NCBI RefSeq assembly: GCF_964355755.1
Contig: NC_092679.1
Coordinates: forward strand, 9,903,432 to 9,967,431
From: Antedon mediterranea
Lineage: Eukaryota > Animalia > Echinodermata
DNA length: 64,000 bases
Direction of reading: 5' to 3'
Below the pieces are notes generated by a model. The model did no database searches. It saw only the letters and a list, made by a program, of their open reading frames with translations, and was not told where the DNA came from. Position numbers and translations under genes: made by a program. Shown here one piece after another: positions 1,835 through 63,400 of the stretch (the first letter of the stretch is position 1; every line of letters begins with the position of its first letter).

Positions 1835-3855
1835 TGTTTGTTTCTGTCCACCGAACTCTCCAGTCTCCTTCTGGAATGACTTTAGTAACAATTTTCTTCT
1901 GCCTTTATTACCTCACTTACCAAAGTATGATGATATTTTTATTGTTAACGGTGTGAATGTTTCGTCACACCCTGTAACTGCTAGTTCATTTAATGATTTT
2001 TTTGTTTCTGTTTTTAACCCACCCATAATTTCCAGCTGTGAACCTCCGGTTTGTAATGTCCTAATCCCTGAACTTTCTCAACTTAACTTTAACGTCTACA
2101 ATGTTGAGAAGGTGATTAATGAACTTTCGTCTAATAAATCTCCAGGTCCTGATTCCGTGCATCCATACATATTGAAATCTGCTTCCGAATTTATTGCTCC
2201 AACCATTATTTAATTTGTTTAACTTGTCCCTGCATATGGGGGAAATCCCCGCTAAGTGGAAAATGTCACATATCACTCCTATGTTTAAATCTGTTGATAA
2301 AAATGCAATTTGTAATTACAAACCAATATCCCTTACCCCTATATGTTCGAAACTGCTTGAAAAAATACTGTTTTCAAGTATATCTGATCACGTTGCTTAT
2401 AATTGTCCAATTACTGAAGTCCAGCACGGTTTTTTCCCTCCCGTTCCTATGTTACCCAACTTACCAACCTAACTCATTCCTGGGCATCTTCGCTAGATAA
2501 AACTAAAGCCCCCAGAATTGATGTTATCTTTCTCGACTACGCCAAAGCGTTTGATAAACTGCCTCACCATATTATTTTAAATAAGCTGGCTAGTCTCTTC
2601 AATATCAGAGGCAATGTCTGGAAATGGATCAAGTCATTTCTTTTGTGACGTTCCTAAAGAGTCTTGTATCAAGGATCCATTAGCCCATCATCCCCAGTTA
2701 CCTCTGGCATACCACAGGGCAGCGTACTTGGACCCCTTATTTTTAACTTATTTATAAATGACCTTCCCTCATCTATTATTTCTCCATGTGCATTGTTTGC
2801 CGATGACACGATAATTTATAGAAATATATTTACTGTAGACGATGAAGTTGTTCTTCAGTGCGATCTGATCAGGCTTTACTCTTGGTGTGATCTAAATGAA
2901 ATGGAGCTTAACTTAAATAAAACCAAGGTTCTCCACATTACAAGATCAAGGAAAGAGTATAGATCTGTTTATCGTATAAATGACTTGCCTATTAAATCCG
3001 TATCTAGTCATTGTCATCTGGGGGTCACGATTAATAGTGAACTTACTTGGGATGACCATGTAAACTTAATTATTTCTCGTTCAAATCGAATGTTGGGTTT
3101 TATTACTAGTATTGCAGGAGGATCATCCCCTTCAGCTATTTTCTCACTCTATAAAGCTCTCATTGTCCCCATCCTTGAATATGGTGTCCCAGCGTGGTTG
3201 CCTCGAACCAAAAAACTTACGGAACGTATCGAGACAGTCCAGCGAAGGGCTACTAGGCTTGTCCTTAAACCAACAAGAGGTGAAATGGAATACGAGGAAC
3301 GTCTCACTAAGCTAAATTGGCCTACACTATCTAATCGAAGAAATTATCTTCTGTTATCCTTTATTTGTAAATCACTTATTGGAACGGTTGATTGTAGTAG
3401 TGTTCGTCAATCTATAGTTGTTAATGGCCGTCACCTTGATACACTTCAGTTCATTCATCACTATGCTCGAACCAATTGTCTTCATCATTCCGCTATTAAC
3501 ATATTCCCTAGGTTGTGGGAAGAATTACCGGAAATGATTAAAAATTCTTTAATTTTAGACAGTTTTCCAACATTTTTAAATTCACTTAAATCACATGTTT
3601 TATATTGACTTTGTTGAATCGACTATAATGCATTTTATCCGTTTATTTTATATTGACACTGTTGATTCGTCTATTTGTTATTTAAATATTTTTATATAGT
3701 TTATTATATATCATTGTTGTTACTTTGTGAGTACGGGACCTGAACTCTTGCTATAGTGATTAGGTTCACTTTTAGGTTCCTGCCTACTCCCTTAGTTTCT
3801 GTGTTTTTGTTTGTTTGTATCTGGTTTTTGGCAATAAATAATAATAATAATAATA
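1835..3855 (+). mobile_element. 5'-truncated CR1-type non-LTR retrotransposon
   Basis: RT fragments KSPGPDSVHP, NYKPISLT, PQGSVLGP, LFADD and a CR1-like C-terminus (LEYG..W.P...IETVQRRATR...YEERL). AATAAA then an (AAT)n tail to 3855. Splits the satellite at gattgatc|attcattt with no clear TSD. Confidence 0.88.
1953..3608 (+). pseudogene. Frameshifted reverse transcriptase (ORF2 remnant) of the CR1-type LINE
   Basis: ORF pieces 1953-2213, 2194-2472 and 2664-3608 are consecutive parts of one RT, broken by frameshifts and stops. Confidence 0.85.
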
Positions 3856-6670
3856 ATTCATTTCATATAAATAGACTATTATCAGCTCTTCAGGTATCTA
3901 CTGGTTTGTGGCGTAACGGGTAATGCTCAGGTTTGAGTGCTCTGAGTAGTGGGTCGAACCTCTAGGGATATTTTTTTCCTTTTTTTTTTAAATTGAAAAT
4001 AAATATGGTTTTTGAAAGTGAGATATTTTGAGGGTTGTAAATGTCAGGCCTAAACAAGTGGACCTTTTTTGAAATCAGAAACAAAGTTGCATGGCATTAT
4101 TTTTCATTGATTGATCATTAATTTCATATATATAGACTATTATCAGCTCCTAAGTCATCTACTGGTTTGTGGCGTAACGGGTAATGCTCAGGTTTGAGTG
4201 CTCTCAGTAGTGGGTTCGAACCTATACGGGTATTTTTTTTCTTTTTTTTTTAATTGAAAATAAATATTGTTTTTGAAAGTGAGATACTTTGAGGGTTGCA
4301 ACTGTCAGGCCTAAACAAGTGAACCTTTTTTAAAATCAGAAACAGAGTTGCATAACATCATTTTACATTGATGGATCATTCATTTTATATAAATAGACTA
4401 TTATCAGCTCTTCACTCATCTACTGGTTTGTGGCGTAACCGGTAATGCTCAGGTTTGAGTTATCTCAGTATGGGGTTCGAACCTCTAGGAATATTTTTTT
4501 TCTTTTTTTTTTATTTGAAAATAAATATTGTTTTTGAAAGTGAGATATTTTGTATGGTTTTAAATGTCAAGCCTAACCAAGTGGACCTTTTTTAAAATCA
4601 GAAACAAAGTTGCATAGCATTATTTTACATTGATGGATCATTCATTTCATATAAATAGACTATTATCAGCTCTTCACTCATCTACTGGTTTGTGGCGTAA
4701 CCGGTAGTGCTCAGGTTTGAGTTCTCGCAGTAGTGGGTTCGAATCTCTACGAATATTATTTTTCTTTCTTTTTTTTAATTGAAAATAAATATTGTTTTTG
4801 AAAGTGAGATATTTTTAAATTGAAAATAAATATTGTTTTTGAAAGTGAGATATTTTGAGGGTTGTAAATGTCAGGCCTAAACAAGTGGACCTTTTTTAAA
4901 ATCAGAAACAAAGTTGCATGGCATTATTTTTCATTGATTTATTATTTATTTCATATAAATAGAGTATTATCAGCTCTTCAGTCATCTACTGGTTTGTGGC
5001 GTAACGGGTAATGCTCAAGTTTGAGTGCTCTCACTAGTGGATTCGAACCTCTACTGATATTTTGTTTTTTTATTTTTTTTTTATTTAAAATAAATATTGT
5101 TTTTGAAAGTGAGATATTTTGAGGGTTGTAAATGTCAGGCCTAAACAAGTGAACCTTTTTTAAAATCAGAAACAAAGTTGCATGGCATTATTTTTCATTG
5201 ATTTATTATTCATTTCATATAAATAGAGTATTATCAGCTCTTCAGTCATCTAATGGTTTGAGGCGTAACGGGTAATGCTCAAGTTTGAGTGCTCGAAGTA
5301 GTGGGTTCGGACCTCTAGGGATATTTCTTTTCTTTTTTTTTTAAATTGAAAATAAATATTTTTTTTGAAAGTGAGATATTTTGAGGGTTGTAAATGTCAG
5401 GCCTAAACAAATGAACCTTTTTTTTAAATCAGAAACAAAGTGGCATGGCATTATTTTTCATTGATTGATCATTAATTTCATATAAATAGACTATTATCAG
5501 CTGTTCAGTTTTCTACTGGTTTGTGGCGTAACAGGTAATACCCAGGGTTGAGTGCTCTGAGTAGTGGGTCGAACCTCTAGGGATATTGCTTTTTTTTTCT
5601 TATTGAAAATAAATATTTTTTGTGAAAATGAGATATTTTTTAGGGTTGTGAATGTCAGGCCTAAACAAGTGAACCTTTTTTAAAATCAGAAACAAAGTTG
5701 CATGGCATTATTTTTCATTGATTGATCATTCATTTCATATAAATAGACTATTATCAGCTCCTCAGTCATCTACTGGTTTGTGGCGTAACGGGTAATGCTC
5801 AGGTTTGAGTGCTCTGAGTAGTGGGTCGAACCTCTAGAGATATTTTTCTATATTTTTTTTTTAAATAGAAAATAAATATGGTTTTTTAAAAGTGAGATAT
5901 TTTGAGGATTGTAAATGTCAGGCCTAAACAAGTGGACATTTTTTAAAATCAGAAACAAAGTTGCATGGCATTATTTTTCATTCATTGATCATTCATTTCA
6001 TATATATAGACTATTATCAGCTCCTCAGTCATCTACTGGTTTGGGGCGTAACGGGTAATGTTTAGGCTTGAGTGCTCTCAGTAGTGGGTTCGAACCTATA
6101 CGGGTATTTTTTTCTTTTTTTTTTAATTGGAAATAAATATTGTTTTTGAAAGTGAGATATTTTGAGGGTTTCAACTGTCAGGCCTAAACAAGTGAACCTT
6201 TTATAAAATCAGAAACAAAGTTGCATGGCATTATTTTTCATTGATTGATCATCCATTTTATATAAATAGACTTTTATCAGCTCTTCAGTCATATACTGGT
6301 TTGCGGCTAACGGGTAATGCTCAGGTTTGAGTGATTTCAATAGTGGGTTCGAACTTCTAGGGATATTTTTTTTCTTTTTTTTTTATTTGAAAATAAATAT
6401 TGTTTTTGAAAGTGAGATATTTTTATGGTTTTAAATGTCAAGCCTAACCAAGTGGACCTTTTTTTAAATCAGAAACAAAGTTGCATAACATCATTTTACA
6501 TTGATGGATCATTCATTTCATATAAATAAACTATTATCAGCTCTTCACTCATCTACTGGTTTGTGGCGTCACCGGTAATGCTCAGGTTTGAGTTCTCTCA
6601 GTAGTGGGTTCGAACCTCTAGGAATATTTTTTTCTTTTTTTTTAAATTGAAAATAAATATTGTTTTTGAA

Positions 6671-7940: not shown

Positions 7941-10529
7941 TGCCTTATGGCATAACGGGTAATGCTCAGTTTTGAGTGCTCCCAGTAGTGGGTTCGAACC
8001 TCTAAGGATATTTCTTTTCTTCTTTTTTTTTAATTGAAAATAAATATTTTTTTTAAAGTGAGATATTTTGAGGGTTGTAAATGTCAGGCCTAAACAAATG
8101 AACCTTTTTTAAAATCAGAAACAAAGTTGCATGGCATTATTTTTCATTGATTGATCATTAATTTCATATAAATAGTCTATTATCAGCTCTTCAGTTATCT
8201 ACTGGTTTGTGGCGTAACGGGTAATACCCAGGTTTGAGTGCTCTCAGTAGTAGCGGGTTTCAACCTCTAGGGATATTGCTTTTTTTTGTCTTTTGAAAAT
8301 GAATATATTTTTTTGAAAATGAGATATTTTTTAGGGTTGTGGATGTCAGGCCTAAACAAATGGATCTTTTTTAAAATCAGAAACAAAGTTGCATGGCATT
8401 ATTTTTCATTGATTGTTCATTCATTTCATATAAATAGACTATTATCAGCTCTTCTTTCATCTACTGGTTTGTGGCGTAACCGGTAATGCTCAGATTTGAG
8501 TGCTCTGAGTAGTGGGTCGATCTCTAGGGATATTTTTCTTTCTTTTTTTTTTAAATTGAAAATAAATATGGTTTTTTAAAAGTGAGATATTTTGAGGGTG
8601 GTAAATGTCAGGCCTAAACAAGTGGACATTTTTTAAAATCAGAAACAAAGTTGCATGGCATTATTTTTCATTGATTGATCATTCATTTCATATATATAGA
8701 CTATTATCAGCTCCTCAGTCATCTACTGGTTTGTGGCGTAACGGGTAATGCACAGGTTTGAGTGCTCTCAGTAGTGGGTTCGAACCTATACGGGTATTTT
8801 TTTCTTTTTTTTTTTATTGAAATGAAATATTGTTTTTGAAAGTGAGATATCTTGATGGTTGCAACTGTCAGGCCTAAAGAAGTGAACCTTTTTAAAAATC
8901 AGAAACAAAGTTGCATGGCATTATTTTTCATTGATTGATCATCCATTTCATATAAATAGACTATTATCAGCTCTTTAGTCATATACTGGTTTGCGGCGTA
9001 ACGGGTAATGCTCAGGTTTGAGTGATTTCAATAGTGGGTTCGAACTTCTAGGGATATTTTTTTCTTTTTTTTTTTACTTGAAAATAAATATTGTTTTTGA
9101 AAGTGAGATATTTTTATGGTTTTAAATGTCTAGCCTAACCAAGTGGACCTTTTTTAAATCAGAAACAAAGTTGCATAACATCATTTTACATTGATGGATC
9201 ATTCATTTCATTTAAATAAACTATTATCAGCTCTTCACTCATCTACTAGTTTGAGGCGTAACCGGTAATGCTCAGGTTTGAGTTCTCTCAGTAGTGGGTT
9301 CGAACCTCTAGGAATTTTTTTTCTTTTTTTTTTAAATTGAAAATAGATATTGTTTTTGAAATCAAATACATGTAAAAAGACTGTCATAAAGCCTCCAAAA
9401 GAAGCCAATGTGCTCCTTCATATTCAGTACTAATGGGTGAGCCTCTTTTCCACCTGGAGTTCTTTTCGAGAGCTGCTGGGTTCCCGCCCGGAAAATGTTT
9501 TATTTACATGATTTGAACAATATTCTAATGTAAATATTAACAGCATCAAAATTTAACAGTGTGGCGTGTTGACCGCGAATGATTAACATATTATCTTCCC
9601 CATAATACACGTGCACAAGCTCATTTGCATAACAACCACGACGGCATACCAAACTGTTTAAAATAAAAAATAGAGTTGCACAGACTCCCGCCTGAAAATG
9701 GTACTTTACATGATTTGAAATTATATGAAACAAAATATATAAGCCTAACAAGGACAATAGAGCTTGTCCACGGAAAGTGCACCTATTTATTGAAATATGA
9801 AATTAAATATTAGGTCTCCAGTAGGCCTACTAGCCCACCATGTTTGGGGGCAGAGCTAATAATGAAAATAGAGCCCATAATTGCACTTATACTTATACTT
9901 ATTACCATACATAATCACCTATGATAATTATGATATTTGTTAAAAATTCAACTATCCAGATGCGAATTCAAAAGTTTAGGTAGAGTTTTCTACTTTAAAA
10001 ACTCGACTTCGTATATGCCTAAGGCCTAGCCCGGCGGCGGAATTAGTCTAAGTTTCGAAATCAGTCTGGAAATCGGCATCTTTGCAAATGTTCTATATTT
10101 GATCTATTTCACTCTCCATTAACCCCATACAAAAATCATCGGAGACAAATTATTTGTTTAAAACATGTTTATTCTGGGACGGTGCGGCCATACACACCAA
10201 CTACCATCCATAAATGTTTATTCATAACATATTACAATACAATATCTTGCATGAATCGGACATTTCGCTACCAATGTAGCAACATTGATTAACAAAATCA
10301 AAATTCAACAGTGTGGCGTGTTGACCGCGAATTACTAACAATACCATCTTTCCCACTACACCTGCAAAAACTCATTTGCATAATAACAAACGGCATACCA
10401 AACTACGGTGAGACATACATTCTCTTCTAAACACGTAACGAAGATAAATTATTTTCTTTTTACATTAAATTGAGGGCGCTAAACATAAAATTTACGAGAT
10501 CAAATACATGTAGCGAAAGCCAAAAAAAA

Positions 10530-10700
10530 ATTTAAAAATGTGCTCTCCCTGCCTCAGCACTAAGGCCCTGCCACGGCCTTGGGGTCGTTTCCACCACATC
10601 ATCACCAGATGCATTGCTAGTGCCTTCTCAAGATGTGTGATGGAAAGGGGGACGTAAATTCTGTGAACCCTAAACACAGTTGGTCGATTACCTTTAACTC
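10530..10700 (+). mobile_element. Possible SINE body fragment (Meta/MESC-like central domain); truncated copy at ~7830-7937
   Basis: GC-richer island taaaaatg...ctccctgcctcagcactaagg...ggggacgtaaa resembles the conserved central domains of metazoan SINEs. Recognised by eye only. Confidence 0.3.
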
Positions 10701-10708
10701 TATTTCAC

Positions 10709-10781
10709 CGACCAGCGTGGGAATCGAACCCACGACATATGTGTTGTCAACACGGCGCTCAGTCGTCTGAGCTAACTGGCC
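10709..10781 (-). pseudogene. tRNA-like sequence (Ile-like body, anticodon reads GAC); probable pseudogene
   Basis: Reverse complement GGCCAGTTAGCTCAGACGACTGAGCGCCGTGTTGACAACACATATGTCGTGGGTTCGATTCCCACGCTGGTCG. Acceptor and T stems pair; the anticodon stem has 2 mismatches; the D loop lacks GG. Confidence 0.65.
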
Positions 10782-12137
10782 ATTTTGGTTTTAGAAATGT
10801 TAATATGATATTTATGACGTAATGATGAATTACGTAATACACTTATAAATAGACTATTATAAACTGTTCTGTCGTGTACTACTTTATGGCATAACGGGTA
10901 ATGCTCAGTTTTGAGTGCTCCCAGTAGTGGGTTCGAACCTGTAAGGATATTTTTTTTTTATTTGAAAACAAATATTGTTTTTGAAAGTGAGATATTTTGA
11001 GGGTTGTAAATATCAGGCCTAAACAATTGGACCTTTTTTAAAATCAGAAACAAAGTTGCATGGCATTATTTTTCATTGATGTATTATTTATTTCATATAA
11101 ATAGAGTATTATCAGCTCTTCAGTCATCTACTGGTTTGTGGCGTAACGGGTAATGCTCAAGTTTGAGTGCTCTCACTATTGGGTTCGAACCTCTAAGGAT
11201 ATTTCTTTTCTTTTTTTTTTTAAATTGAAAATAAATATTTTTGTTAAAAGTGAGATATTTTGAGGGTTGTAAATGTCAGGCCTAAACAAAATGAACCTTT
11301 TTTAAAATCAGAAACAAAGTTGCATGGCATTATTTTTCATTGATTGATCATTAATTTTATATAAATAGACTATTATCAGCTCTTCAGTTATCTACTGGTT
11401 TGTGGCGTAACGGGTAATACCCAGGTTTGAGTGCTCTCAGTAGCGGGTTCCAACCGCTAGGGATATTGCTTTTTTTTTCTTATTGAAAATAAATATTTTT
11501 TTGGAAAGTGAGATATTTTGAGGGTTGTAAATGTCAGGCCTAAACAAATGAACCTTTTTTTAAAATCAGAAACAAAGTTGCATGGCATTATTTTTCATTG
11601 ATTGATCATTAATTTCATATAAATAGACTATTATCAGCTCTTCAGTTATCTACTGGTTTGTAGCGTAACAGGTAATACCCAGGTTTGAGTGCTCTAAGTA
11701 GTGGGTCGAACCTCTAGGGATATTGCTTTTTTTTTTCTTATTGAAAATAAATATTTTTTTTTGAAAATGAGATATTTTTTAGGGTTGTGAATGTCAGGCC
11801 TACTCAAGTGAACCTTTTTTTAAATCAGAAACAAAGTTGCATGGCATTATTTTTCATTGATTGATCATTCATTTCATATAAATAGACTATTATCAGCTCC
11901 TCAGTCATCAACTGGTTTGTGGCGTAACGGGTAATTCTCAGGTTTGCGTGCTCTTAGTAGTGGGTTCGAACCTCCAGAGATTTTTTTTTTTTTTTAAATT
12001 GAAAATAAATATTGTTTTTGAAAGTGAGATATTTTGAGGGTTGTAAATATCAGGCCTAATCAAGTGGACCTTTTTTAAAATCAGAAACAAAGTTGCATTG
12101 CATTATTTTTCATTGATTTATTATTTATTTCATATAA

Positions 12138-12978
12138 TGTAATATAACGATATACTTTTATATTTAAGAAATTGACCTTTGTATCGGAATTCAAATAGGT
12201 TCACAAACTTGACCCAGAAAGTCCAGAGGAGAGTTTGTCCAGATGTTTTAATGACCATTTAGTTTATAATAGAATCCTTAAAGAAAACACTTAGCTTAAT
12301 TTTGCGACTGTTCCCATCGTAAAACAATTAGATATTGACAGTTTTAAGCAGAGATTCGACAGGGCCAATTCATCATTGTAACCTCCCCAGATAAGATCAA
12401 TCACTCCCACTTAAACACCCCTGGATCAACTTAGGACCAATCGTTACCCTCACAGATTACGTAGTGACATATGCAAATGAACCGAGGGCCAATATACTCC
12501 CAAGTTTCAGAAGGGCTCAGGGACACCTTACAGCCATTTCACGGAGCACACACCTCACAGCCACTTCTTCAGAAGCAGACCTACACACTTCACACCTCAC
12601 CGACAGCATCATTGATCCTCCGTTCCTTATCTATACTTATAGTTGTATATTGTACTGAGGTATTATACTGAATAAACAATATATGTGTTACGACAGTCAA
12701 GCGAGTAAGAGTCTTCATTAGTACCTCAACAACGCAAACATTATATTACATGGTGGAAGACCCAAATCTTATGAGGAACAGAGTGAGAAAACAGAATAAC
12801 AAGAAAACAAGAAATAAACACTTAACAAGACACGAAGACGAAGACGAAGACAAAAATAACCATATTTGTTTGAAAGGAGAAAACCAGAAATTTACTTTGA
12901 CTCAAAAGACAAGCTGAAATTATATTTGAATGAGTTCGAGACAAGTAGAAATTTTATCAAAATTATTACCATTTGATG
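12138..12978 (+). mobile_element. LTR retrotransposon fragment: 613-bp 5' LTR, PBS and short internal region
   Basis: TGTAATATAA (12138) and TTATATTACA (12750) form a perfect 10-bp terminal inverted repeat with TG..CA ends. AATAAA at 12671. TGGTGGAAGA (PBS-like) follows immediately. A short gag-like frame PEIYFDSKDKLKLYLNEFE precedes the truncation. Confidence 0.75.
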
Positions 12979-13026
12979 ATAGAGTATTATCAGCTCTTCA
13001 GTCATCTACTGGTTTGTGGCGTAACG

Positions 13027-13618
13027 GATAGATAGATCAGCGAGAGAGAGATAGATCAGCTAAAGAGAGATAGATAGATCAGCGAGAGAGAGATAGATCA
13101 GCGAGAGAGATAGATTAGCGAGAGAGAGATAGATAGATGAGCGAGAGAGAGATAGATCAGCGAGAGAGAGATAGATCAGCGAGAGAGAGATAGATAGATG
13201 AGCGAGAGAGAGATAGATGAGCGAGAGAGAGATAGATCAGCGAGAGAGAGATAGTTCAGCGAGAGAGAGATAGATAGATCAACGAGAGAGAGATAGATAG
13301 ATCAGCGAGAGAGAGATAGATAGATCAGCGAGAGAGAGATAAATAGATCAGCGAGAGAGAGATAGATCAGCGAGAGAGAGAGAGATAGATCAGCGAGAAA
13401 GAGATAGATCAGCGAGAGAGATAGATAGATCAGCGAGAGAGAGATAGATCAGCGAGAGAGAGAGAGATAGATCAGCGAGAGAGAGAGAGAGAGATAGATC
13501 ATTGAAAGAGAGAGAGATAGATCAGCGAGAGAGAGATAGATCAGCGAGAGAGAGATAGATCAGCAAGAGGGAGAGATAGATCAGCGAGAGAGAGATAGAT
13601 CAGCGAGAGAGAGATAGA

Positions 13619-50155: not shown

Positions 50156-53037
50156 AGCGAGAGAGAGAGAGATAGATCAGCGAGAGAGAGAGAGATAGAT
50201 CAGCGAGAGAGAGATAGATCAGCGAGAGAGAGATAGATAGATCAGCGAGAGAGAGATAGATAGATCAGCGAGAGATAGATAGATCAGTGAGAGAGAGATA
50301 GATCAGCGAGAGAGAGATAGATAGATCAGCGAGAGAGAGATAGGTCAGCGAGAGAGAGATAGATCAGCGAGAGAGATAGATAGATCAGCGAGAGAGAGAT
50401 AGATCAGCGAGAGAGAGAGAGAGAGAGAGAGATAGATCAGCGAGAGAGAGAGAGATAGATGAGCGAGAGAGAGATAGATAGATCAGCGAGAGAGAGATAG
50501 ATCAGCGAGAGAGATAGATCAGCGAGAGAGAGATAGATAGATAGATGAGCGAGAGAGAGATAGATGAGCGAGAGAGAGATAGATCAGCAAGAGAGAGAGA
50601 TAGATAAGCGAGAGAGAGATAGATCAGCGAGAGAGAGATAGATAGATAGATCAGCGAGAGAGAGATAGATAGATCAGCTAGAGAGAGATAGATCAGCGAG
50701 AGAGAGATAGATAGATCAGCGAGAGAGAGAGAGATAGATCAGCGAGAGAGAGATAGATCAGCGAGAGAGATAGATAGATCAGCGAGAGAGAGAGATAGAT
50801 CAGCGAGAGAGAGATAGATGAGCGAGAGAGAGATAGATCAGCGAGAGGGAGAGATAGATCAGCGAGAGAGAGATAGATCAGCGAGAGAGATAGATCAGCG
50901 AGAGAGAGATAGATCAGCGAGAGAGAGATAGATCAGCGAGAGAGAGATAGATCAGCTAGAGAGAGAGATAGATCAGCGAGATAGAGAAAGATCAGCGAGA
51001 GAGAGATAGATCAGCGACAGAGAGATAGAACAGCGAGAGAGAGATAGATCAGCGAGAGAGATATAGATCAGCGAGAGAGAGATAGATCAGCGAGAGATAG
51101 ATAGATCAGCGAGAGAGAGAGAGATAGATCAGCAAGAGAGAGATAGATCAGCAAGAGAGAGATAGATCAGCGAGAGAGAGAGATAGATCAGCGAGAGCGA
51201 GATAGATTAGCGAGAGAGAGATAGATAAGCGAGAGAGAGATAGATCAGCGAGAGAGAGAGAGATAGATCAGCGAGAAAAAGATAGATCAGCGAGAGAGAT
51301 AGATAGATCAGCGAGAGAGAGAGAGAGATAGATCAGCGAGAGAGAGAGATAGATCAGCGAGAGAGAGATAGATGAGCGAGAGAGAGATAGATCAGCGAGA
51401 GGGAAAGATAGATCAGCGAGAGAGAGATAGATCAGCGAGAGAGATAGATCAGCGAGAGAGAGATAGATCAGCGATAGAGAGATAGATCAGCGAGAGAGAG
51501 ATAGATCAGCGAGAGAGAGAGAGAGATAGATCAGCGAGAGAGAGTGAGAGAGATAGATCAGCGAGAGAGAGATAGATCAGCGAGAGAGAGATAGATAGAT
51601 CAGCGAGAGAGAGATAGATAGATCAGCATGAGATAGATAGATCAGCGAGAGAGAGATAGATCAGCGAGAGAGAGAGATAGATAGATCAGCGAGAGAGAGA
51701 TAGGTCAGCGAGAGAGAGATAGATCAGCGAGAGAGATAGATAGATCATCGAGAGAGAGATAGATCAGCGAGAGAGAGAGAGAGAGAGAGATAGATCAGCG
51801 AGAGAGAGAGAGAGAGAGAGATAGATCAGCGAGAGAGAGAGATAGATCAGCGAGAGAGAGATAGATCAGCGAGAGAGATAGATAGATCAGCGAGGGAGAG
51901 ATAGATCAGCGACAGAGAGATAGATCAGCGAGAGAGAAAAAGATCAGCGAGAGAGAGATAGATCAGCGACAGAGAGATAGATCAGCGAGAGAGAGATAGA
52001 TCAGCGAGAGGGAGAGATAGATCAGCGAGAGAGAGATAGATCAGCGAGAGAGAGATAGATCAGCGAGAGAGAGATAGATCAGCGAGAGAGAGATAGATCA
52101 GCGAGAGAGAGAGAGATAGATCAGCGAGAGAGAGAGAGATAGATCAGCGAGAGAGAGAAAGATCAGCGAGAGAGAGATAGGTCAGCGACAGAGAGATAGA
52201 TCAGCGAGAGAGAGATAGATCAGCGAGAGAGATATAGATCAGCGAGAGAGAGATAGATCAGCGAGAGAGAGATAGATCAGCGAGAGAGAGAAATAGATCA
52301 GCGAGAGAGAGAAAGATCAGCGAGAGAGAGATAGATCAGTGAGAGAGAGATAGATCAGCGAGAGAGAGATAGATTAGCGAGAGAGAGATAGATCAGCGAG
52401 AGAGAGAGAGATAGATCAGAGAGAGAGATAGATCAGCGAGAGAGAGATAGATCAGCGAGAGAGAGATAGATTAGCAAGAGAGAGATAGATCAGCGAGAGA
52501 GAGATAGATCAGCGAGAGAGAGAGAGATCAGCGAGAGAGAGATAGATCAGCGAGAGAGAGATAGATCAGCGAGAAAGAGATAGATCAGCGAGAGAGAGAT
52601 AGATAGATCAGCGAGAGAGATAGATCAGCGAAAGAGAGATAGATAGATCAGCGAGAGAGAGATAGATCAGCGAGAGAGATAGATCAGCGGGAGAGAGATA
52701 GAGAGATAGATGAGCGAGAGAGAGATAGATGAGCGAGAGAGAGATAGATCAGCGAGAGAGAGATATATAAGCGATAGAGAGATAGATCAGCGAGAGAGAG
52801 ATAGATAGATAGATCAGCGAGAGAGAGATAGATAGATCAGCTAGAGAGAGATAGATCAGCGAGAGAGAGATAGATAGATCAGCGAGAGAGAGATAGATCA
52901 GCGAGAGAGAGAGATAGATCAGCGAGAGAGAGATAGATCAGCGAGAGAGAAAATGATCAGCAAGAGAGAGATAGATCAGCGACAGAGAGATAGATCAGCG
53001 AGAGAGAGATAGATCAGCGAGAGAGATATAGATCAGC
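49817..53037 (+). repeat. TAGATCAGC(GA)n minisatellite
   Basis: Same unit, plus orientation. Confidence 0.97.
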
Positions 53038-53187
53038 GATCTATCTCTCTCTCGCCGATCTCTCTCTCTCTCCCCCGCTGATCTATCTCTCTCGCTGATC
53101 TCTCTCTCTCTCTCTCTCTCTCGCTGATCTATCTCTCTCTCGCTGATCTATCTCTCTCGCTGATCTATCTCTCTCTCGCTGATCTAT
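53038..53187 (-). repeat. Inverted ~150-bp stretch of the minisatellite
   Basis: Strand switches to (TC)nGCTGATCTA at ~53038 and runs up to the tail of the inverted L2. Confidence 0.92.
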
Positions 53188-53835
53188 AATAATAATAATA
53201 ACAGGGTTTTTATAGCGCACATACCACTCAAGAGTGCTCAAGGCGCATTAAAAAAAAAAAAATTTAAACAAATCATACAAATGCCTGACAAATAAAATGC
53301 AATTTCTTTGGAGGGTCCCCATCCGTTCTCGTTCTGTCGCGGTCCCGGACCCCTACCTAGATGACCAAACAAAGGAACAGGATACACATTTGCCTTGCCA
53401 CAGACGACCGGGTGCTCAGAGACAACAACCAAGATAAGATAATGCTGGTCAGGAAAAAGTATACTATAAAATTCTAGAACTTTAAGAAACCTCATGATTT
53501 CCATATGCCTTAATGAATAAATGTGTTTTTAATAATTTTTTAAAAGTATCAAAAGTTTTGCAAAATCTGATAGAGCTTGGTATTGCATTCCATAGACGAG
53601 GAGCAGTAACGGTGAAAGCTCTGTCTCCCCATGAGTGGTGAGACTTAGGTTGATGTAGAAGCAGCGTATCACTAGAACTCAGATTCCGTCTGGGAACATA
53701 CAGCCTAAGCATGTCAGAAATATATTCAGGAGCCATGCCATTAATAGACTTAAAAACATAGAGTAATAATTTAAAAACAATGCGGTACCTAACAGGAAGC
53801 CAATGCAAAGTTTCCAAGGTATTTGATATGTGTGC

Positions 53836-53872
53836 CACGGCAGTTTCAAACGCGATATCCGAGACACAAAGT
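53836..53872 (+). promoter_or_regulatory. 5' end: RSS-like heptamer - 21-bp spacer - nonamer
   Basis: CACGGCA gtttcaaacgcgatatccgag ACACAAAGT gttt. Confidence 0.7.
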
Positions 53873-54496
53873 GTTTACAACGCGCTTTTGATTGATACGC
53901 CTGGCGCGTGCCTTGAGCAGCTATTTATAGCCCACCAACATCGAGCGAAATGTTTACATTCGCTAGCTATAAACAGAGAGTGTATCATACGAAGTAAATA
54001 CAGTCTTACAATGACCAATTAATAAAGTTTTCCTCGAATCTTACAGTGTTTGCTTTGTTATTGTATTTTGTATTAGGGAAAATTGTCTAGGATTAAAAAA
54101 TATTATTAAAAAAGCGAAATTTTAACGATGTTTGCGATAGTTTCAAAAGCTGAAAATTTACATAAATAGCGCCCTCACGGCGAAAGTTTATCGTCGCGGT
54201 AAGTTCAAGCTTTTGATCGTCTGATAGCAAATCTCTGCAATTTTTTCGAGCAACACCGTTAATTCCAAGTGAAAGCGGAGACTTTATTCTTTATTTAGCT
54301 CAAAATTCAGGCTGACGTCTACTTTCAAATTGATTTGAGCTAAATTTGAAATTGACTTATTTCTGTTCAAAATTCCAGTGATTTTATAGGTAAAAATAGG
54401 CCTAGGGCAAAGTTAATTATATATTTTTTAAAGAATTGTGTATTGGTTTTGCATTGACTGTATGTGGTATGTTACTGTTATTTATTGTCTTGTGAA

Positions 54497-57400
54497 ATGG
54501 AGTACCATACATATGCATTGAGTAATTTATGTCGTGTATGTGGTGTCAAGTTAACACGAAATCAGCGAAAATTTGACCTAACTAAAGTAAAAGATAGCGT
54601 CCTGACATTTTTAAATATCAATTTAACTCATGAAAACAAAGATGTACATCCACCATTCATTTGCAAGAACTGTCAATTTTCAAGCTATAACAAGGTTAGC
54701 ACAACTCAAAGGTACATCTGGAGACAACACACACAACAATCATGTTTCACATGTTATTTATTATCAGAACAGTCAAAACCAGGTAAGAGACTAAAACAAG
54801 TAAAACTCAACACATTATTTTCTGAAACAGAATGTGACGTTATTCCATCAAAATTTACAGTCAATGACAAAATCAATTCTGAACCTTTCATTTGCCAAAT
54901 ATGCAACTCGATTTTGTCTTTCAACAGTCTTGAGTCAAACTGTTCACATCACTATTGTTCTAGTTGTATGTATAATTTGTTTAGTACCCTCCATGTTAAC
55001 GTATGTTCATGTCTTGTGTGCGCAAAGCCAATGCACATGCTGGAATTTAAACCCGCCTCCCAAATTGTAATAGAGTCTCTAAAATCACTAGAATTACAAT
55101 GCTCGTGCAATAAGTTCATAAAATACTCTCAACATCAGAGACATATTTGTGAACACCAGACAACTAAAGAAGTGATTTATCATAATGTTTCAAAAGCTGT
55201 ATCAATGTTAGAGAAATCACTAGAAGATAGTCATGTCTCCCAAACAATACAAACGTTTGCAGAAAAAGTTGTTTACAATCAACTAAAGAAAAGTAAGGAA
55301 ATGCTGATTGCAACAAATGGTCGGGTGAGTGCTTTAAAACAAATTCTGTAATTATCATATTGCATGTTATAAAAAGTAGATTAATATTATTATAACAGAA
55401 TTGTTAGCATAAAACATACAAATACAATTCTTATCTACAGCCAGCAAAGATTGCTATGATACCAAACACCAAAGTCTCAAGCGATAAGGCCAGTTCTCGA
55501 ACTGTTTCAAGACGAGCAAATAGCATCAGCAGCATCATAAAATCAGTTGGCAATAGTGAGGCTGGTGATTTCCATCAAAAAGTGTACTCAGCCAAACATA
55601 TGAGTCAAGCGGTCTTAAAAACAGCCAACATAGCATCAACTTCGTCTATAGATACAGATAAGGCTCTGGCAATGGTGTCAGACTGCCATCTGGCATGGAA
55701 CCAGCTACGAAAGCTAAGAAGGTAAACAAACAATTATGTGATTAAATAAAACCATGCATGAATACAGGCATTTTAGACACAGTCAAGTATGTCTAATAAT
55801 AAAGCGAGACTACATTATTAATCATTTTTTATGTACTAGATATGTGGAGAAGGGGACAATACCATCAGAGAAAAGGATGCGGCAGCGGCAAAATGATCTC
55901 ATTGGGGATTATTTTGAATCCACAATGGAAATGCTATGTTTTAGGTCTGAGACGTCCCCAGACGGGATAGAATTAAGATCAACGCCTACTGTCAAACTGA
56001 AAAACATTAAAAAAGTTGTATTTTCATATCTTGATGAACACTCAAGGTACGCTGAAGTTAAATTTAAATATGTGCTTACAAAGTGTAGAACTTACTTTTT
56101 AGGACTTTACTTTTGTTCCTATGGATTTTGCTATGGAAATAAAAGTTAAAAGAAATTAATTAAAAACTGAATTAATATTTACTAAATTTTTTACAGACTG
56201 AACAACCTATCTCCCAATAATAACGAGATTTGGATAAAGTTTGGCGGGGATAAGGGAGGTGGAAGTACCAAATATGAGGTACAGATATGTAGCCTCGCCA
56301 AACCAAATTCAATTAACAACATCATCGTCGTACTAATATTTGATGCCCCTGACATGATGTTTAATATTAACCGGACTCTTCCGGAAGTGGCCCACCAAGT
56401 TGTTGCTTTGAACGGGGAAAAATGGCGGTAAGAATACAACTAGTATATCAACTTAACAATTATGTGGATGCGTATATAAGTAATAAAATAAAAATATATG
56501 TATAATTTCTTTCAGCAATTACACACTGAGAGTTTTCTGTTTTGGGGACTATGAATATCTAACAAAACTCTATGGATTAAATGGACCAAATGGTAAACTA
56601 TTAAATTATTTTATCATCATTTAATTTATACAAAATCTTTCTAAGCCAATTTTATTTATACTGTATTACTGCATATTTTAGCATTTTTAAACATTGTGAA
56701 AAAATTTGAATACTTTTAGCTCGATACTGCTGTCTCTTTTGTGAAAAACCAAAAGCAGAAATGCAATTAAAGGCACCACCCGCCAAACAGCGATCATTGG
56801 CTTCAATCAGAGCCAACTATAGAATGTTTATGGAAGATGGCGGAATTGAAAGCCGATCTAAGGATGTTTCCATGAGCGTTGTTAATAATCCCTTAGTATC
56901 AATTGAGGTAGATCATGTAAGTACATCAGTTTTGTTTTTAATTATCTTTATATTAGAGAAACAAATGTACTTACTTCATTATATGGCACTGTTGGTATTA
57001 AAATTTATATCTTTTAGGTGTCTGTTCCTAGCCTGCACTTGTCATTGGGCATATTCAAGAAGCTCTTTGATATGCTTGAGACGGAGGCGCACAGCATAGA
57101 TTGCCTCATATATTCCCTAAGGAAAAATGGAGAACTTGATGACACTTCTGAATCAAAGTTTGATAAAATAATTCAACATCAGATCCAAACACAAATTGAT
57201 ATCAAAGAAAAGATTGAAGAAAAGAAATTAAAGTTGACTGAGATGGAGGATGCAATGCCATTAATCTATCTTAAAGGAAGTGTTGATGGTAGCATCATTA
57301 CCAATGTGGGAAAGATAGTCAAATTGAGAGAAGAGATTGAGTCACTGGTAAGTTACTCAAACAATAAATGACATGTATGTGTCTGGCAAGACGCATCTAC

Positions 57401-58396
57401 ACACACACATACTCTAAAGACAAAACTTGTATTATATTTTATTTTACAGACAAAATGCATGGAAAATGGGCTTCCATTTGGAACGGGTCCAATTGTCACA
57501 TCACTGGAGCGTGTGCTACAAAAAAATCGCATCCAACGGCAAGCCTATCATGGTAAATCATTTATTGGTAACCATGTTCATAAATGTTGTCAGGTAAATT
57601 AACTATTCTTTTAATTGATATTGTTTCAACTGTTAATTATTAAAATTGTAGTTTTTAAAATGTATATTTGTTTTTAATAGGACCACGTTAGGAATGAACT
57701 AGTGAATGCTCCACTACATGAAATGAAAATTCAAGAAGCTGAGATTCCTATCGGAAAAATTCAGCTAATTGACAAAAGAGTAAAAGAATTAGTCACCAAG
57801 TACGATGCACTCCTTTCAAAATTTTCTAGGGTTCACAACAACTTGAATAATTCAAAACCTGTCACAGATGTTGATATTCAAAGAAATGGTAATGTAATTA
57901 TGCTTACCTTTCAAGGTATTCCTTAGACATGCCATTGTTTCTTTTCCTACAACACACTGCAACTGTTTCTTTTCTCTTCTACAAAAAAAAATTCAGATGA
58001 AGCCATAAAAGACTTTATGGAGGAATATCGAAAAACCAACAAAAGTATATCTCCAAAATTACATATGCTCGAGGAACATGTCATTCCCCAATTAAAGGCT
58101 TGGAGATTTGGTCTGGGACTGGTTAGCGAGCAAGGTGGGGAGTCTATTCACGCCGCGCTTAATAAAAGGAAAAGAACAGTTGCTGGGATGCATGACAGAC
58201 TTGGACAGTTAACATCCATGATGCGGTCACATGCAATTACCACTCAGCCATGCATAATAGAAGAAATAGTTGAACCCAAAAGAAGAAAAATTGGTAACAA
58301 TTTACACTTTATTGATTACACTATTTGTGCTTTTTAGCTCCCTGCTCACCAAAAATTAAATAAACCTGTTTATATTTTTCAGAAAAAGAAGAATAA
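54497..58396 (+). CDS. RAG1-like / Chapaev-type DDE transposase with N-terminal Zn domain and RING finger, 11 exons, ~937 aa, no stops in the spliced model
   Basis: Hand-built GT-AG model with compatible phases: 54497-55324, 55441-55721, 55840-56046, 56197-56427, 56516-56592, 56720-56916, 57018-57347, 57450-57593, 57681-57888, 57997-58293, 58383-58396 (last exon uncertain; the alternative stop is at 58337). Motifs: LCRVCG..HPPFICKNC..WRQH..CFTC; RING CQIC..CSHHYCSSC..CLVC; NGRP; GGDKGGG (D1); FGDYEYL (D2); CCLFC; LHLSLG; RQAYHGKSFIGNH; PKLHMLEEH; SEQGGESIH (E). Confidence 0.88.
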
Positions 58397-59542
58397 AGTA
58401 CACGACAATGAATACGAAATAAAAGAAAATATAGGCTTACTGATAAATCTGACGGAGTGCCATCTTCTTCTTTATTATGGATTCTCTTATGAACCACACT
58501 TGCATCAATAAAGTAGTCGTACTTGTTTGTGTTGGTGGTATTTTTGGAACCTGTAGTACAATTTTTGAATTATAAATATTTATCATCATTATTTTAAAAA
58601 AATGGTGGACTAGCGATTGAAATACATGATGAAATATTATATTATTATTAGGACTATACTGTCAAAATTAAAATCAAAATTTTATTTTTTATTCTACAAA
58701 TGCAATGCTGTTGCTGCCATAGTTTAGTAATATTCAAGCCATAGGAAGATAGACTATGATATTTTCACATTTTCTACTGTAGAATAACTTAGGCCCTCAT
58801 GAAAGCTAGTTAGTAAGTATACCTATCCTCCTAGGCCTACCTATGTCTTGATGGTACCATATTAAAAAATTAGGCCTAGCCTAGCTAGATAGAGCTGTTA
58901 CTAAGCCTGGCCCTGCTGATTTCCCCTCTTAACGACATATACTTGGGCTAGGCCTACTAAGAGTATATTATTCTAGGCCTAGGCCTATACAGTATTTATT
59001 TTTCGTGGCTTAAACCTAGTACTTGGTGACAAACCTTTGTTAGGCCTAGGCCTTTAGCAGCACACCCACGTGTGCAAAACAGGCAAATGGGCCCCGACTT
59101 TCTGTGTATATAATTATTAAACTGGATTAGACGTCAGCGAGATTTTTTAAATATTGTTTATCAAGTTTTTGAATTTTCACATCGACTAGGCGCCGATGTT
59201 TATGTAAATTGCAAAAAAAATATATAACCTCACCATTACCCTGTAATTAAACTGCTATTTTTTACTGTTTTTTGTCGCAAAATAGACGTAAGATTTCAAT
59301 ACTCATATCTGGTGAAGTCTTGAGAAACGGAGTGACCGCTGGCTTCGAATATCAATTACATGCCTTCTTCTTCGAATATAACATGAATATTCATTAAATT
59401 TTCAATTATAACACTGTCTATTGGTCAGTTTATTCCCTCTCTTTTACCAGGGTATTAAAAATAGTCTTCCGGGTATTTAAACTAGCGCCCTCTATAACAT
59501 AAAATAAGAAAAAGCGAGCATCGAAACTATAGAGGGCTCACC

Positions 59543-59570
59543 ACTTTTTGTCTCGCTGGAAACTGCCGTG
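59543..59570 (-). promoter_or_regulatory. 3' end: RSS-like heptamer - 12-bp spacer - nonamer
   Basis: Reverse complement CACGGCA gtttccagcgag ACAAAAAGT ggtgagccctcta. Confidence 0.75.
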
Positions 59571-60449
59571 GTGCATATCTTGGTAGTTTTTAACAACTCG
59601 TGCCGCTGTATTTTGAATCAGCTGAAGCCTGTGGAGTTGTTTTTGTGGGAGACCAAATAACAAGGAGTTACACATATCGAGACGCGAACTAACAAATGCA
59701 TGTACAAGTTGCTCAGCAGCTGCACGATTTAAGTATTTTCTGATGCCTTGAATATTTCTTAAATGATATGACGATGCAGACGTAATTTTAGAAATTATGA
59801 GCCGTCATTGTCATATTAGAATCCAGAATTACACCAAGATTTGTAACTTGTGTAGTATTTTTAGTACAAAAGTTACCAATGGAAACCCTCTTAGATGGAA
59901 TTTTCTCTAATTGTTTTTGCGAACCAAATAGAATGCACTCAGTCTTATCATCATCATTAAGTTTCAAAAAGTTTTTGGCCATCCAGACACGAATTTCAGA
60001 GATACATTTTTCAAGCAAATCAATTGATAATTCACCCTTTGTCATGGTAGGTTTAAACGATATATATATCTGAGTGTCATCAGCGTAAACATGATAACTA
60101 AGATTATATTTCTTAATGATATCACGAATAGGATACACATAAATTGTAAACAATTGTGGACCTAACACAGATCCTTGCGGAACAGAGTAATTTAAAGTGG
60201 TAGGTTGAGAGATTTCCTCTCTAATACAAATGTGTTGAGGTCTGTCCTCCAAGTATGATTGACACCATCTTAGTGCACATCCCTGAACACCAATAGAAGC
60301 ATGCAACCTCTCAGTCAGAATACTATGATCTACTGTATCAAACGCAGCACTCAAATCCAGTAAAATTAAAGCAGTTACTTTTTCAACATCCATCGCACGA
60401 AGTATATCATTGCTAACGCGCAGGAGTGCAGTTTCAGTACTGTGATGTG

Positions 60450-63400
60450 ATTGAGAGAGAGAGATAGATCAGCGAGAGCGAGATAGATTAGCGAGAGAGA
60501 GATAGATCAGCGAGAGAGAGATAGATCAGCGAGAGAGAGATAGATCAGCGAGAAAGAGATAGATCAGCGAGAGAGATAGATAGATCAGCGAGAGAGAGAG
60601 AGAGAGATAGATCAGCGAGAGAGAGAGAGATAGATCAGCGAGAGAGAGAGATATAGATCAGCGAGAGAGAGATAGATCAGCGAGAGGGAAAGATAGATCA
60701 GCGAGAGAGAGATAGATCAGCGAGAGAGAGAGAGAGATCATCGAGAGAGAGAGATAGATCAGCGAGAGAGAGATAGATCAGCGAGAGAGAGAGAGATAGA
60801 TCAGCGAGAGAGAGATAGATCAGCGAGAGAGGAAAAGTTCAGCGAGAAAGATATAGATCAGCGACAGAGAGATAGCTCAGCGAGAGAGAGATAAATCAGC
60901 GAGAGAGATATAGATCAGCGAGAGAGATAGATCAGCGAGAGAGAGATAGATCAGCGAGAGAGAGAAAGATCAGCGAGAGAGAGATAGATCAGCGAGAGAG
61001 AGATAGATCAGCGCGAGAGATAGATCAGCGAGAGAGAGAGAGATAGATCAGCGAGAGAGAGATAGATCAGCGAGAGAGAGAGAGAGAGAGATAGATCAGC
61101 GAGAGAGAGACAGATAGATCAGCGAGAGAGAGTGAGAGAGATAGATCAGCGAGAGAGAGAGATAGATCAGCGAGAGAGAGGGATAGATCAGCGAGAGAGA
61201 GATAGATCAGCGAGAGAGAAAAAGATCAGCGAGAGAGAGATAGATCAGCGAGAGAGAGATAGATCAGCGACAGAGAGATAGATCAGCGAGAGAGATATAG
61301 ATCAGCGAGAGAGATAGATCAGCGAGAGAGAGATAGATCAGCGAGAGAGAGAAAGATCAGCGAGAGAGAGAGATAGATCAGCGAGAGAGAAATAGATCAG
61401 CGAGAGAGATAGATCAGCGAGAGAGAGAGATAGATCAGCGAGAGAGATAGATCAGCGAGAGAGAGAGATGGATCAGCGAGAGAGAGAGATAGATCAGCGA
61501 GATAGAGAAAGATCTGCGAGAGAGAGATAGATCAGCGAGAGAGAGATAGATCAGCGAGAGAGATATAGATCAGCAAGAGAGAGATAGATCAGCGAGAGAG
61601 AGATAGATCAGCGAGAGAGAGAGAGAGATCAGCGAGAGAGAGATAGATCAGCGAGAGAGAGATAGATCAGCTAGAGAGAGAGATAGATCAGCGAGATAGA
61701 GAAAGATCAGCGAGAGAGAGATAGATCAGCGACAGAGAGATAGATCAGCGAGAGAGCGATAGATCAGCGAGAGAGATATAGATCAGCGAGAGAGAGATAG
61801 ATCAGCGAGAGATAGATAGATCAGCGAGAGAGAGAGAGAGATAGATCAGCAAGAGAGAGATAGATCAGCAAGAGAGAGATAGATCAGCGAGAGAGAGAGA
61901 TAGATCAGCGAGAGCGAGATAGATTAGCGAGAGAGAGATAGATCAGCGAGAGAGCGATAGATCAGCGAGAGAGAGAGATAGATCAGCGAGAAAGAGATAG
62001 ATCAGCGAGAAAGATAGATAGATCAGAGAGAGAGAGAGATAGATCAGCGAGAGAGAGAGAGAGAGATAGATCAGCGAGAGAGAGATAGATCAGCGAGAGA
62101 GAGAAAGATCAGCGAGAGAGAGAGATAGATCAGCGAGAGAGAAATAGATCAGCGAGAGAGATAGATCAGCGAGAGAGAGATAGATCAGCGAGAGAGAGAT
62201 AGATCAGCGAGAGAGAGAGATGGATCAGCGAGAGAGAGAGATAGATCAGCGAGATAGAGAAAGATCTGCGAGAGAGAGATAGATCAGCGAGATAGAGATA
62301 GTTCAGCGAGAGAGAGATAGATCAGCAAGAGAGAGATAGATCAGCGAGAGAGAGATAGATCAGCGAGAGAGAGAGAGAGAGATCAGCGAGAGAGAGATAG
62401 ATCAGCGAGAGAGAGATAGATCAGCTAGAGAAAGAGATAGATCAGCGAGATAGAGAAAGATCAGCGAGAGAGAGATAGATCAGCGACAGAGAGATAGATC
62501 AGTGAGAGAGAGATAGATCAGCGAGAGAGATATAGATCAGCGAGAGAGAGATAGATCAGCGAGAGATAGATAGATCAGCGAGAGAGAGAGAGATAGATCA
62601 GCAAGAGAGAGATAGATCAGCAAGAGAGAGATAGATCAGCGAGAGAGAGAGATAGATCAGCGAGAGCCAGATAGATTAGCGAGAGAGAGATAGATCAGCG
62701 AGAGAGAGAGATAGATCAGCGAGAAAGTGATAGATCAGCGAGAGAGATAGATAGATCAGCGAGAGAGAGAGATAGATCAGCGAGAGAGAGAGAGATAGAT
62801 CAGCGAGAGAGAGAGATATAGATCAGCGAGAGAGAGATAGATCAGTAAGAGGGAGAGATAGATCAGCGAGAGAGAGATAGATCAGCGAGAGAGAGAGAGA
62901 GATCAGCGAGAGAGAGAGATAGATAGGCGAGAGAGAGATAGATCAGCGAGAGAGAGAGATAGATCAGCGAAAGAGAGATAGATCAGCGAGAGAGAAAAAT
63001 ATCAGCGAGAGAGAGATAGATCAGCGACAGAGAGATAGATCAGTGAGAGAGAGATAGATCAGCGAGAGAGATATAGATCAGCAAGAGAGATAGATCAGCG
63101 AGAGAGAGATAGATCAGCGAGAGAGAGAAAGATCAGCGAGAGTGAGATAGATCAGCGAGAGAGAGATAGATCAGCGAGAGAGATAGATCAGCGAGAGAAA
63201 GAGATAGATCAGCGAGAGAGAGAGATAGACCAGCGAGAGAGATAGATCAGCGAGAGAGAGATAGATAAGCAAGAGAGAGATAGATTAGCGAGAGAGAGAT
63301 AGATCAGCGAGAGAGAGATAGATCAGCGAGAGAGAGAGAGGTCAGCGAGAGAGAGATAGATCAGCGAGAGAGAGAGAGAGATAGATCAGCGAGAAAGAGA

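Follow-up and report, generated by a model that had tools for sequence, protein, structure and literature searches.

Is the 12/23 rule a property of RAG1-type proteins, or is it an invention that needs RAG2? This question is raised by a transposon at positions 53836..59570 of a 64,000-nucleotide stretch of the feather star Antedon mediterranea (the window; contig NC_092679.1, positions 9,903,432 to 9,967,431, forward strand). The element is an intact, transcribed Chapaev-type transposon, whose two ends, one long and one short, hold a shared inner sequence block at distances from the cut site that differ by about one helical turn. Asymmetric ends in Chapaev, a more distant branch with 4-bp target-site duplications (TSDs), would either place this end design before the split of the lineages or show its repeated origin. 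Since the copy is intact and spliced, and carries the Chapa and RING regions of RAG1 in the absence of RAG2, the pairing question becomes testable with one protein; moreover, the family supplies natural variants, with offsets of 9, 10 and 11 bp and the long end on either side.

Ends of the Antedon element

The element opens with CACGGCA at 53836 and closes with the same heptamer reversed at 59570, its termini being formed by a 12-bp perfect inverted repeat, CACGGCAGTTTC (left terminal block, 53836..53847, plus strand; right terminal block, 59559..59570, minus strand). The contigs of the sequencing runs start at 53836 and stop at 59570, with loose ends at the latter position in runs X5 and X9, both of which also read past it into two other flanks. 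Taken together, these starts, stops and additional flanks fix the CAC..GTG ends and the 4-bp TSD, and show other insertion sites. The duplicated tetramer, GTGC, flanks both sides (53832..53835 and 59571..59574, plus strand), and an empty site with one GTGC was found in 4/4 runs compared; the reads from this site may come from further copies of the host repeat or from alleles that lack the insertion. At this site a 13-bp repeat combined with a 2-bp duplication of TG is an equally good fit; it was rejected because the other flanks start with A or T directly after 59570.

Internal to each terminal block lies a second block, CGAGACA(C/A)AAAGTG, which is identical between the ends at 13/14 positions. 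At the left, long end it occupies 53860..53873 (plus strand; offset 24), separated from the terminal block by 12 nt; at the right, short end it occupies 59542..59555 (minus strand; offset 15), separated by 3 nt, with the left copy lying 9 bp further in. When counted from the heptamer, the 9-mers at the nonamer position follow after 21 nt on the left (ACACAAAGT) and after 12 nt on the right (ACAAAAAGT). The subterminal regions contain a 9/10 match, which was equaled in 15/1000 shuffles, and in 1/1000 at an offset of 9–11.

An earlier note, made from the letters of this stretch, had recorded the CACGGCA ends, the GTGC duplication and the 21/12 spacing; all of these are right, the 21 and 12 being the offsets of the second block counted from the heptamer. 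Its reading of the ends as similar to recombination signal sequences (RSSs) fares differently. The heptamer agrees with CACAGTG at only 4/7 positions (CAC plus one further base), and the claimed 7/9 match to the RSS nonamer ACAAAAACC is true of the right end, whereas the left end reaches 6/9. Such ends are reportedly called RSS-like in the abstract of Panchin and Moroz 2008. As a separate observation, either end has a single copy of the 10-mer TAGCGCCCTC nearby (54167 and 59483), both in the same orientation; it resembles part of a CTCF site.

End geometry across the family

A scan of metagenome contigs for relatives recovered 78 loci, in which ends were located with a terminal-block profile trained on ends already seen. 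Both ends were found at 7/78 loci, representing five families, or six with the window, whose transposases are 28–45% identical. Near-duplicates (L040, L044, L061, L068, L072, L073, L075 and L077) were left out of the end counts, as were terminal-block matches that scored low or fell within a coding span (e.g., L001, L017, L027, L035, L059, L060, L067 and L069); L025 was retained by eye although its terminal score is low. The best subterminal match has an offset of +9 in the window, +10 in L002, −10 in L018 and −11 in both L074 and L076 (the latter with copies L068 and L075). Thus, offsets of 9, 10, 10, 11 and 11 bp are seen in 5/6 two-ended families, and 0/6 are symmetric. Shuffled sequences place their best match at 9–11 in 12% of trials, giving the 5/6 a p of ~1.5e-4, or 0.002 when they are counted as three lineages. 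In a FastTree tree of 36 rows, comprising Chapaev-type family members only, the asymmetric families fall into three separate branches: the window and L002 have their long end on the left, whereas the L018/L074/L076 clade has it on the right. Hence the bipartite geometry of about one helical turn that the earlier note had proposed is kept across these branches. Among the two-ended copies, the TSD is 4 bp in 7/9, was not found in 2/9 and is 5 bp in 0/9.

The short ends further indicate which of their features are conserved. We stacked 20 short-type ends without gaps, namely six chosen as the shorter partner of a paired set and 14 unpaired ones chosen on the terminal block, from about eight groups: base 19 is G in 20/20 and base 27 is G in 18/20. 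With three more ends added via the block itself, bases 22–25 are A/T in 20–22 of 23. In contrast, a 7/9 likeness to the RSS nonamer is seen in 2/23 of these ends, most of which score 2–4. Setting these counts against the nonamer scores, it is the position and the A/T tract that are conserved, and not the nonamer sequence. The short spacer is 12, as set by the invariant G19; the long spacer is not 21 family-wide, being 21 in the window, 22, 22, 23 and 23 in four relatives, and ambiguous in L042. A wrong-strand control returned three matches in 190,774 bases, with none at offsets 15 or 24–26. Each of the 14 unpaired ends belongs to the short type; in three this agrees with their clade, in which the long end is the missing one, and the others may come from symmetric families.

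These counts bear directly on the view that the RSS-like spacing is a chance feature of a single element. The rarity of nonamer likeness in the family speaks for chance, and this stands for the nonamer sequence; however, the geometry recurs in unrelated families, and for the geometry the relatives refute chance, leaving this view with practically no likelihood. The long/short end geometry is real and family-wide.

The scan also yielded observations of separate interest. One contig (L074) bears two Chapaev families 3 kb apart (1974–6487 and 9466–13141), each with its own 4-bp TSD. Another locus (L013) has at position 361 an extra long-type end (offset 26), upstream of its own left end, for which no partner was found. 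Two family members without ends (L079 and L080) lie on contigs of 2257 and 908 bp from two bacterial metagenome-assembled genomes, probably reflecting binning contamination. In viral contigs, 117 pattern matches included 0 relatives.

Transposase, antisense RNA and host site

The element has one protein-coding gene, on the plus strand, with 11 exons, GT-AG introns and an open frame of 937 aa. Six of its ten introns are visible as GT..AG joints in X5, a run which, like the others, is not recorded as RNA and was handled as RNA because these splice joints are present. Exon 1 (54497..55324), the splice of which was placed by GT-AG and frame alone, encodes a Chapa zinc finger (aa ~4–86), a RING domain (133–175), a further zinc finger and the GR of a GRP motif. 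Exon 2 (55441..55721; family profile match E 1.7e-18) encodes predicted helices resembling the nonamer-binding domain (NBD) and the dimerization and DNA-binding domain (DDBD) of RAG1. Exons 3–11 (55840..58396) encode a RAG1-like DDE core; they lie at 55840–56046, 56197–56427, 56516–56592, 56720–56916, 57018–57347, 57450–57593, 57681–57888, 57997–58293 and 58383–58396. Its DDE, C(2)C and H(4)H positions are D457 (56249), D527 (56547), C546/C549, H857/H862 and E883 (58140); each of these, together with L613/H614, is kept in 73–81 of 81 aligned rows. An annotated Antedon mediterranea protein, P0002, is identical to residues 383–937 at 551/555 positions. In many relatives of ~30% identity (L013, L016, L042, L074, L076 and others) the open frame begins at the P of GRP and stops after the DDBD helix, and exon 2 of the window (junctions 55324/55441 and 55721/55840) has these same limits, which suggests shared, old intron positions.

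Domain comparisons agree with the Chapaev assignment. The pattern of the N-terminal Chapa region agrees by eye with the Chapaev_BF/NV rows in the supplement of PMC4411706, and the region matches a relative (P0170) that bears PF12560 with a BLASTP E of 2e-6; a domain search gave no direct PF12560 match for the window protein itself. The RING region matches zf-C3HC4 with E 0.013, under the curated cut-off, and its best match in the PDB is RAG1 (E 8e-4). The core matches DUF1280, which is found across the family; 2012 relatives of the core have E values of 0.001 or less, the named ones coming from echinoderms, acorn worm, lancelet, Hydra, Hydractinia and coral. The CCGHC tail is absent from the window protein and from 47/47 long relatives.

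The DDE core is predicted to fold like RAG1. The model of P0002 (predicted local distance difference test score 94.9) has RAG1 as its best structural match (Z 22.6, root-mean-square deviation (rmsd) 3.6, 409 aligned residues, 15% identity), followed by BbRAG1L (Z 21.5), HzTransib (Z 20.5, rmsd 3.4, 359 aligned) and the P element (Z 11.4). At the sequence level the core reaches RAG1 by a profile with E 0.005, and phmmer searches of the PDB with the core and with the last large exon returned no RAG1 match. In the zinc-binding domain of this model, residues ~230–340 form a long inserted coiled-coil hairpin, at a site corresponding to the RAG2-contacting part of RAG1.

One might then suppose the element to be a divergent solo RAG1L or a Transib, in which case its ends would be an ordinary layout of the RAG-like (RAGL) elements or Transibs. 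The nearest solved folds, RAG1, BbRAG1L and HzTransib, and the best PDB match of the RING would agree with this, as would the lability of TSD length reported for some Transibs (bioRxiv 2026.08.26.747230). Set against this are the TSD counts of the two-ended copies given above, a core identity to RAG1 of 13–15% in structural alignments along with the absent phmmer match, the Chapa and RING regions, which Transib is without, and the occurrence of DUF1280 across the family. These leave it a very slim chance. The Chapaev-type placement made in the earlier note, outside both RAGL and Transib, is upheld: every Chapaev hallmark tested (CAC..GTG ends, 4-bp TSD, Chapa, RING and the DDE motifs) is present in the element, RAG2L and a 5-bp TSD are absent, and it belongs to neither of those lineages.

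Upstream of the core, the NBD-like region of the family starts with a T-G-G-(R/Q/K)-P motif, after which comes a basic helix; in the window the motif reads TNGRP. We modeled this region from a relative (L001), the first of 30 rows that include exon 2 of the window. The top 16 Foldseek rows shown for this model are RAG1 chains, with no row reaching significance (best E 0.09), and RAG1 also fills the first 17 VIA rows. It aligns to RAG1 391–510 with Z 6.4, rmsd 10.4 and 21% identity over 112 residues, as against a Z of 3.0 for the best unrelated row and likewise for the isolated NBD (3gna). A sequence profile search with the region found nothing, including no match to RAG1. This modeled resemblance to the RAG1 NBD/DDBD is suggestive.

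The single gene claimed for the element stands as far as protein-coding genes go; however, X5 reveals a second, convergent spliced transcript. This antisense RNA (minus strand, within 53836..59570, its start and end lying outside the contig evidence) runs from the right end with five GT-AG introns, seen as CT..AC joints, through exons at ~59570–59234, 58550–58441, 57978–57908, 57116–56975, 56130–56096 and 55713–53836. It has the orientation of RAG2L in ProtoRAG, and it was considered as a RAG2-like coding transcript; this was rejected, as its longest ATG open reading frame (ORF) in the translation of the window copy is 65 aa and the stop-free minus-strand frames are ≤82 aa. No RAG2 ORF is present in the element. 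One contig extends 51 letters past the right end into the flank, which would allow for transcription reading through from a host promoter; the antisense RNA may either repress the element or be such read-through. The contig depth in X5 is 66–101 at antisense joints and 5–13 at sense joints, contig depth being a poor measure of level.

Transcription and splicing of both strands, and the reported action of the host factor YY1 on ProtoRAG ends (PMC7481187), would also fit the inner block being a host-factor or promoter element for the sense and antisense transcripts, and no site for the transposase. However, the spacing between the block and the cut site is constant and G19 is invariant, while the block sequence differs from family to family and agrees between both ends of each element, a pattern that fits co-evolution with each transposase. 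Such a host role is hence quite improbable.

As for context, the insertion splits a host reverse transcriptase ORF (53482..60468, minus strand), presumably LINE-type from its motifs, which is not part of the element and whose frame stays open through the empty site reconstructed in silico. At 59587 the host retroelement copy is one T shorter than the empty-site reads, giving a frameshift ~13 bases from the insertion. GATC-punctuated CT/GA microsatellite arrays, at 53000–53196 and 60436–60500 in inverted orientation, flank this host copy. The stretch is found, in whole or in part, in 11 runs from five studies, with at least half its words in eight of them.

Proposed pairing of the ends and comparison with known systems

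Briefly, we advance the following mechanism, which we regard as fairly probable: the RAG1-like transposase core of this bipartite-ended Chapaev transposon binds the terminal 12 bp, the NBD-like domain binds the inner block, and a pair of one long and one short end works best. By analogy with RAG and Transib, the protein would work as their transposases do: a dimer would bind the terminal 12 bp, nick next to CAC and hairpin the flank, with insertion following at a 4-bp stagger. The NBD-like region may read the inner block, its G-R-P motif recognizing the A/T tract via the minor groove, and the offset of one turn could hold both inner blocks on the same DNA face for a tilted NBD dimer, much as the pivoting NBD dimer of RAG enforces the 12/23 rule (bioRxiv 2023.08.20.553239). 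RAG2 would play no part.

The chief rival to this proposal accepts the inner block as a transposase site and holds that the asymmetry does no more than modulate efficiency, or was inherited as a layout, with no pairing rule. In its favor, RAG1 without RAG2 is reported to show no preference for 12/23 over 12/12 (reviewed in PMC8355894). Further, the TR5 block of ProtoRAG hardly affects cleavage in vitro (PMC8289069), and in the family studied here the offset drifts from 9 to 11 and the long end changes sides. In contrast, the lack of any symmetric two-ended family and the persistence of offsets within one helical turn at ~30% protein identity speak against it, and ProtoRAG prefers the asymmetric pair in cells (PMC8289069). 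We consider a layout free of any pairing rule rather unlikely. Beyond the RAG1 result, several points weigh against a preferred long/short pair: the two-ended families number only six; one of them, L042, yields no significant subterminal match and has no clear second block; L002 and L018 lack a TSD; symmetric families could be the source of the 14 unpaired ends; some subgroup II Transibs have symmetric ends (PMC9435367); the resemblance to the NBD is weak in its Foldseek E, rmsd and Z to the isolated domain, and its model comes from a relative; and the distance between the GRP motif and the first helix exceeds that in RAG1 by ~10 residues.

With the long/short pairing still our preferred reading, its evolutionary bearing can be considered. 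As several distant relatives share ends differing by about one helical turn, the long/short design behind the 12/23 rule has likely existed for longer, and in more lineages, than has been described. A stronger form, which we put forward tentatively and as something less than probable, is that the one-turn end design and the NBD reading it are ancestral to the RAG1–Transib–Chapaev clade, and that single-protein Chapaev, bearing the N-terminal domains of RAG1, enforces a true, previously undescribed 12/23-type pairing without RAG2 or the CCGHC tail.

For Transib, the combination of asymmetric ends and no RAG2 has been published before (PMC1131882, PMC9435367). Thus, the RAG2 independence claimed in the earlier note agrees with the missing RAG2 ORF but was overstated as new, given the descriptions from 2005 and 2022 of single-gene Transibs whose ends are of the 12/23 type. 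The new part, provisionally, is the long/short ends in Chapaev: no description of them was found in the literature covered, outside of which lie the 2007 Repbase report, Panchin and Moroz 2008, and Yuan and Wessler 2011. The covered parts of PMC4411706, PMC8355894, PMC4079192, PMC1131882, PMC7204232, PMC9435367, PMC8289069 and PMC12730594 hold no such statement, nor do those of bioRxiv 2023.08.20.553239, 100735, 2026.08.26.747230 and 2026.01.24.700457; the supplement of PMC9435367 does not mention 'Chapaev'.

Among known systems, the element shares with the two subgroups of Chapaev that bear Chapa and RING (PMC4411706, PMC4079192) its CAC..GTG termini, a 4-bp TSD (the hallmark being 3 to 4 bp), a single transposase gene, the order of Chapa followed by RING, and a DDE core with C(2)C, LH and H(4)H motifs, the last of which, along with the triad, are not discriminating because they are common to Transib and RAG1. 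The descriptions of Chapaev in the covered parts of these papers make no mention of bipartite long/short ends or an NBD-like region; the present element additionally has the spliced antisense RNA. Transibs with asymmetric ends (Transib5, Transib2_AG and others, PMC1131882; subgroup I, PMC9435367) likewise combine one gene, no RAG2, a CAC heptamer, a RAG1-like fold and a second block at ~12 and 23 nt, but as a rule have 5-bp TSDs and an A-rich nonamer and are without Chapa and RING.

In the RAGL elements, AanRAGL (PMC9435367) has blocks of 13 and 10 bp with spacers of 4 and 13 bp, as compared to 12 and 14 bp with 3 and 12 here, both having a 9-bp offset, while in PflRAGL-A (bioRxiv 2023.08.20.553239) the bases adjoining the heptamer are conserved and the ends differ by 10 bp. 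Both differ from the element in possessing RAG2L and 5-bp TSDs, and PflRAG1L-A has the CCGHC tail that the element is without; further, RAGL cores characteristically resemble RAG1 clearly in sequence (for TransibSU, by over 30%), as against the 13–15% identity seen here. The N-RAG-TP transposon of Aplysia has a RAG1-like N-terminal region and is described as N-terminal sequence only (via PMC8355894). Finally, the element differs from RAG1/RAG2 and the 12/23 RSSs in the low identity of its core, its 4/7 heptamer, a nonamer unconserved in the family, a long spacer of 21, the absence of RAG2 and the 4-bp TSD. What it has in common with them is the predicted core fold, the catalytic residues, the RING, the CAC terminus, the 12-nt short spacer, the one-turn offset and a GRP-like motif.

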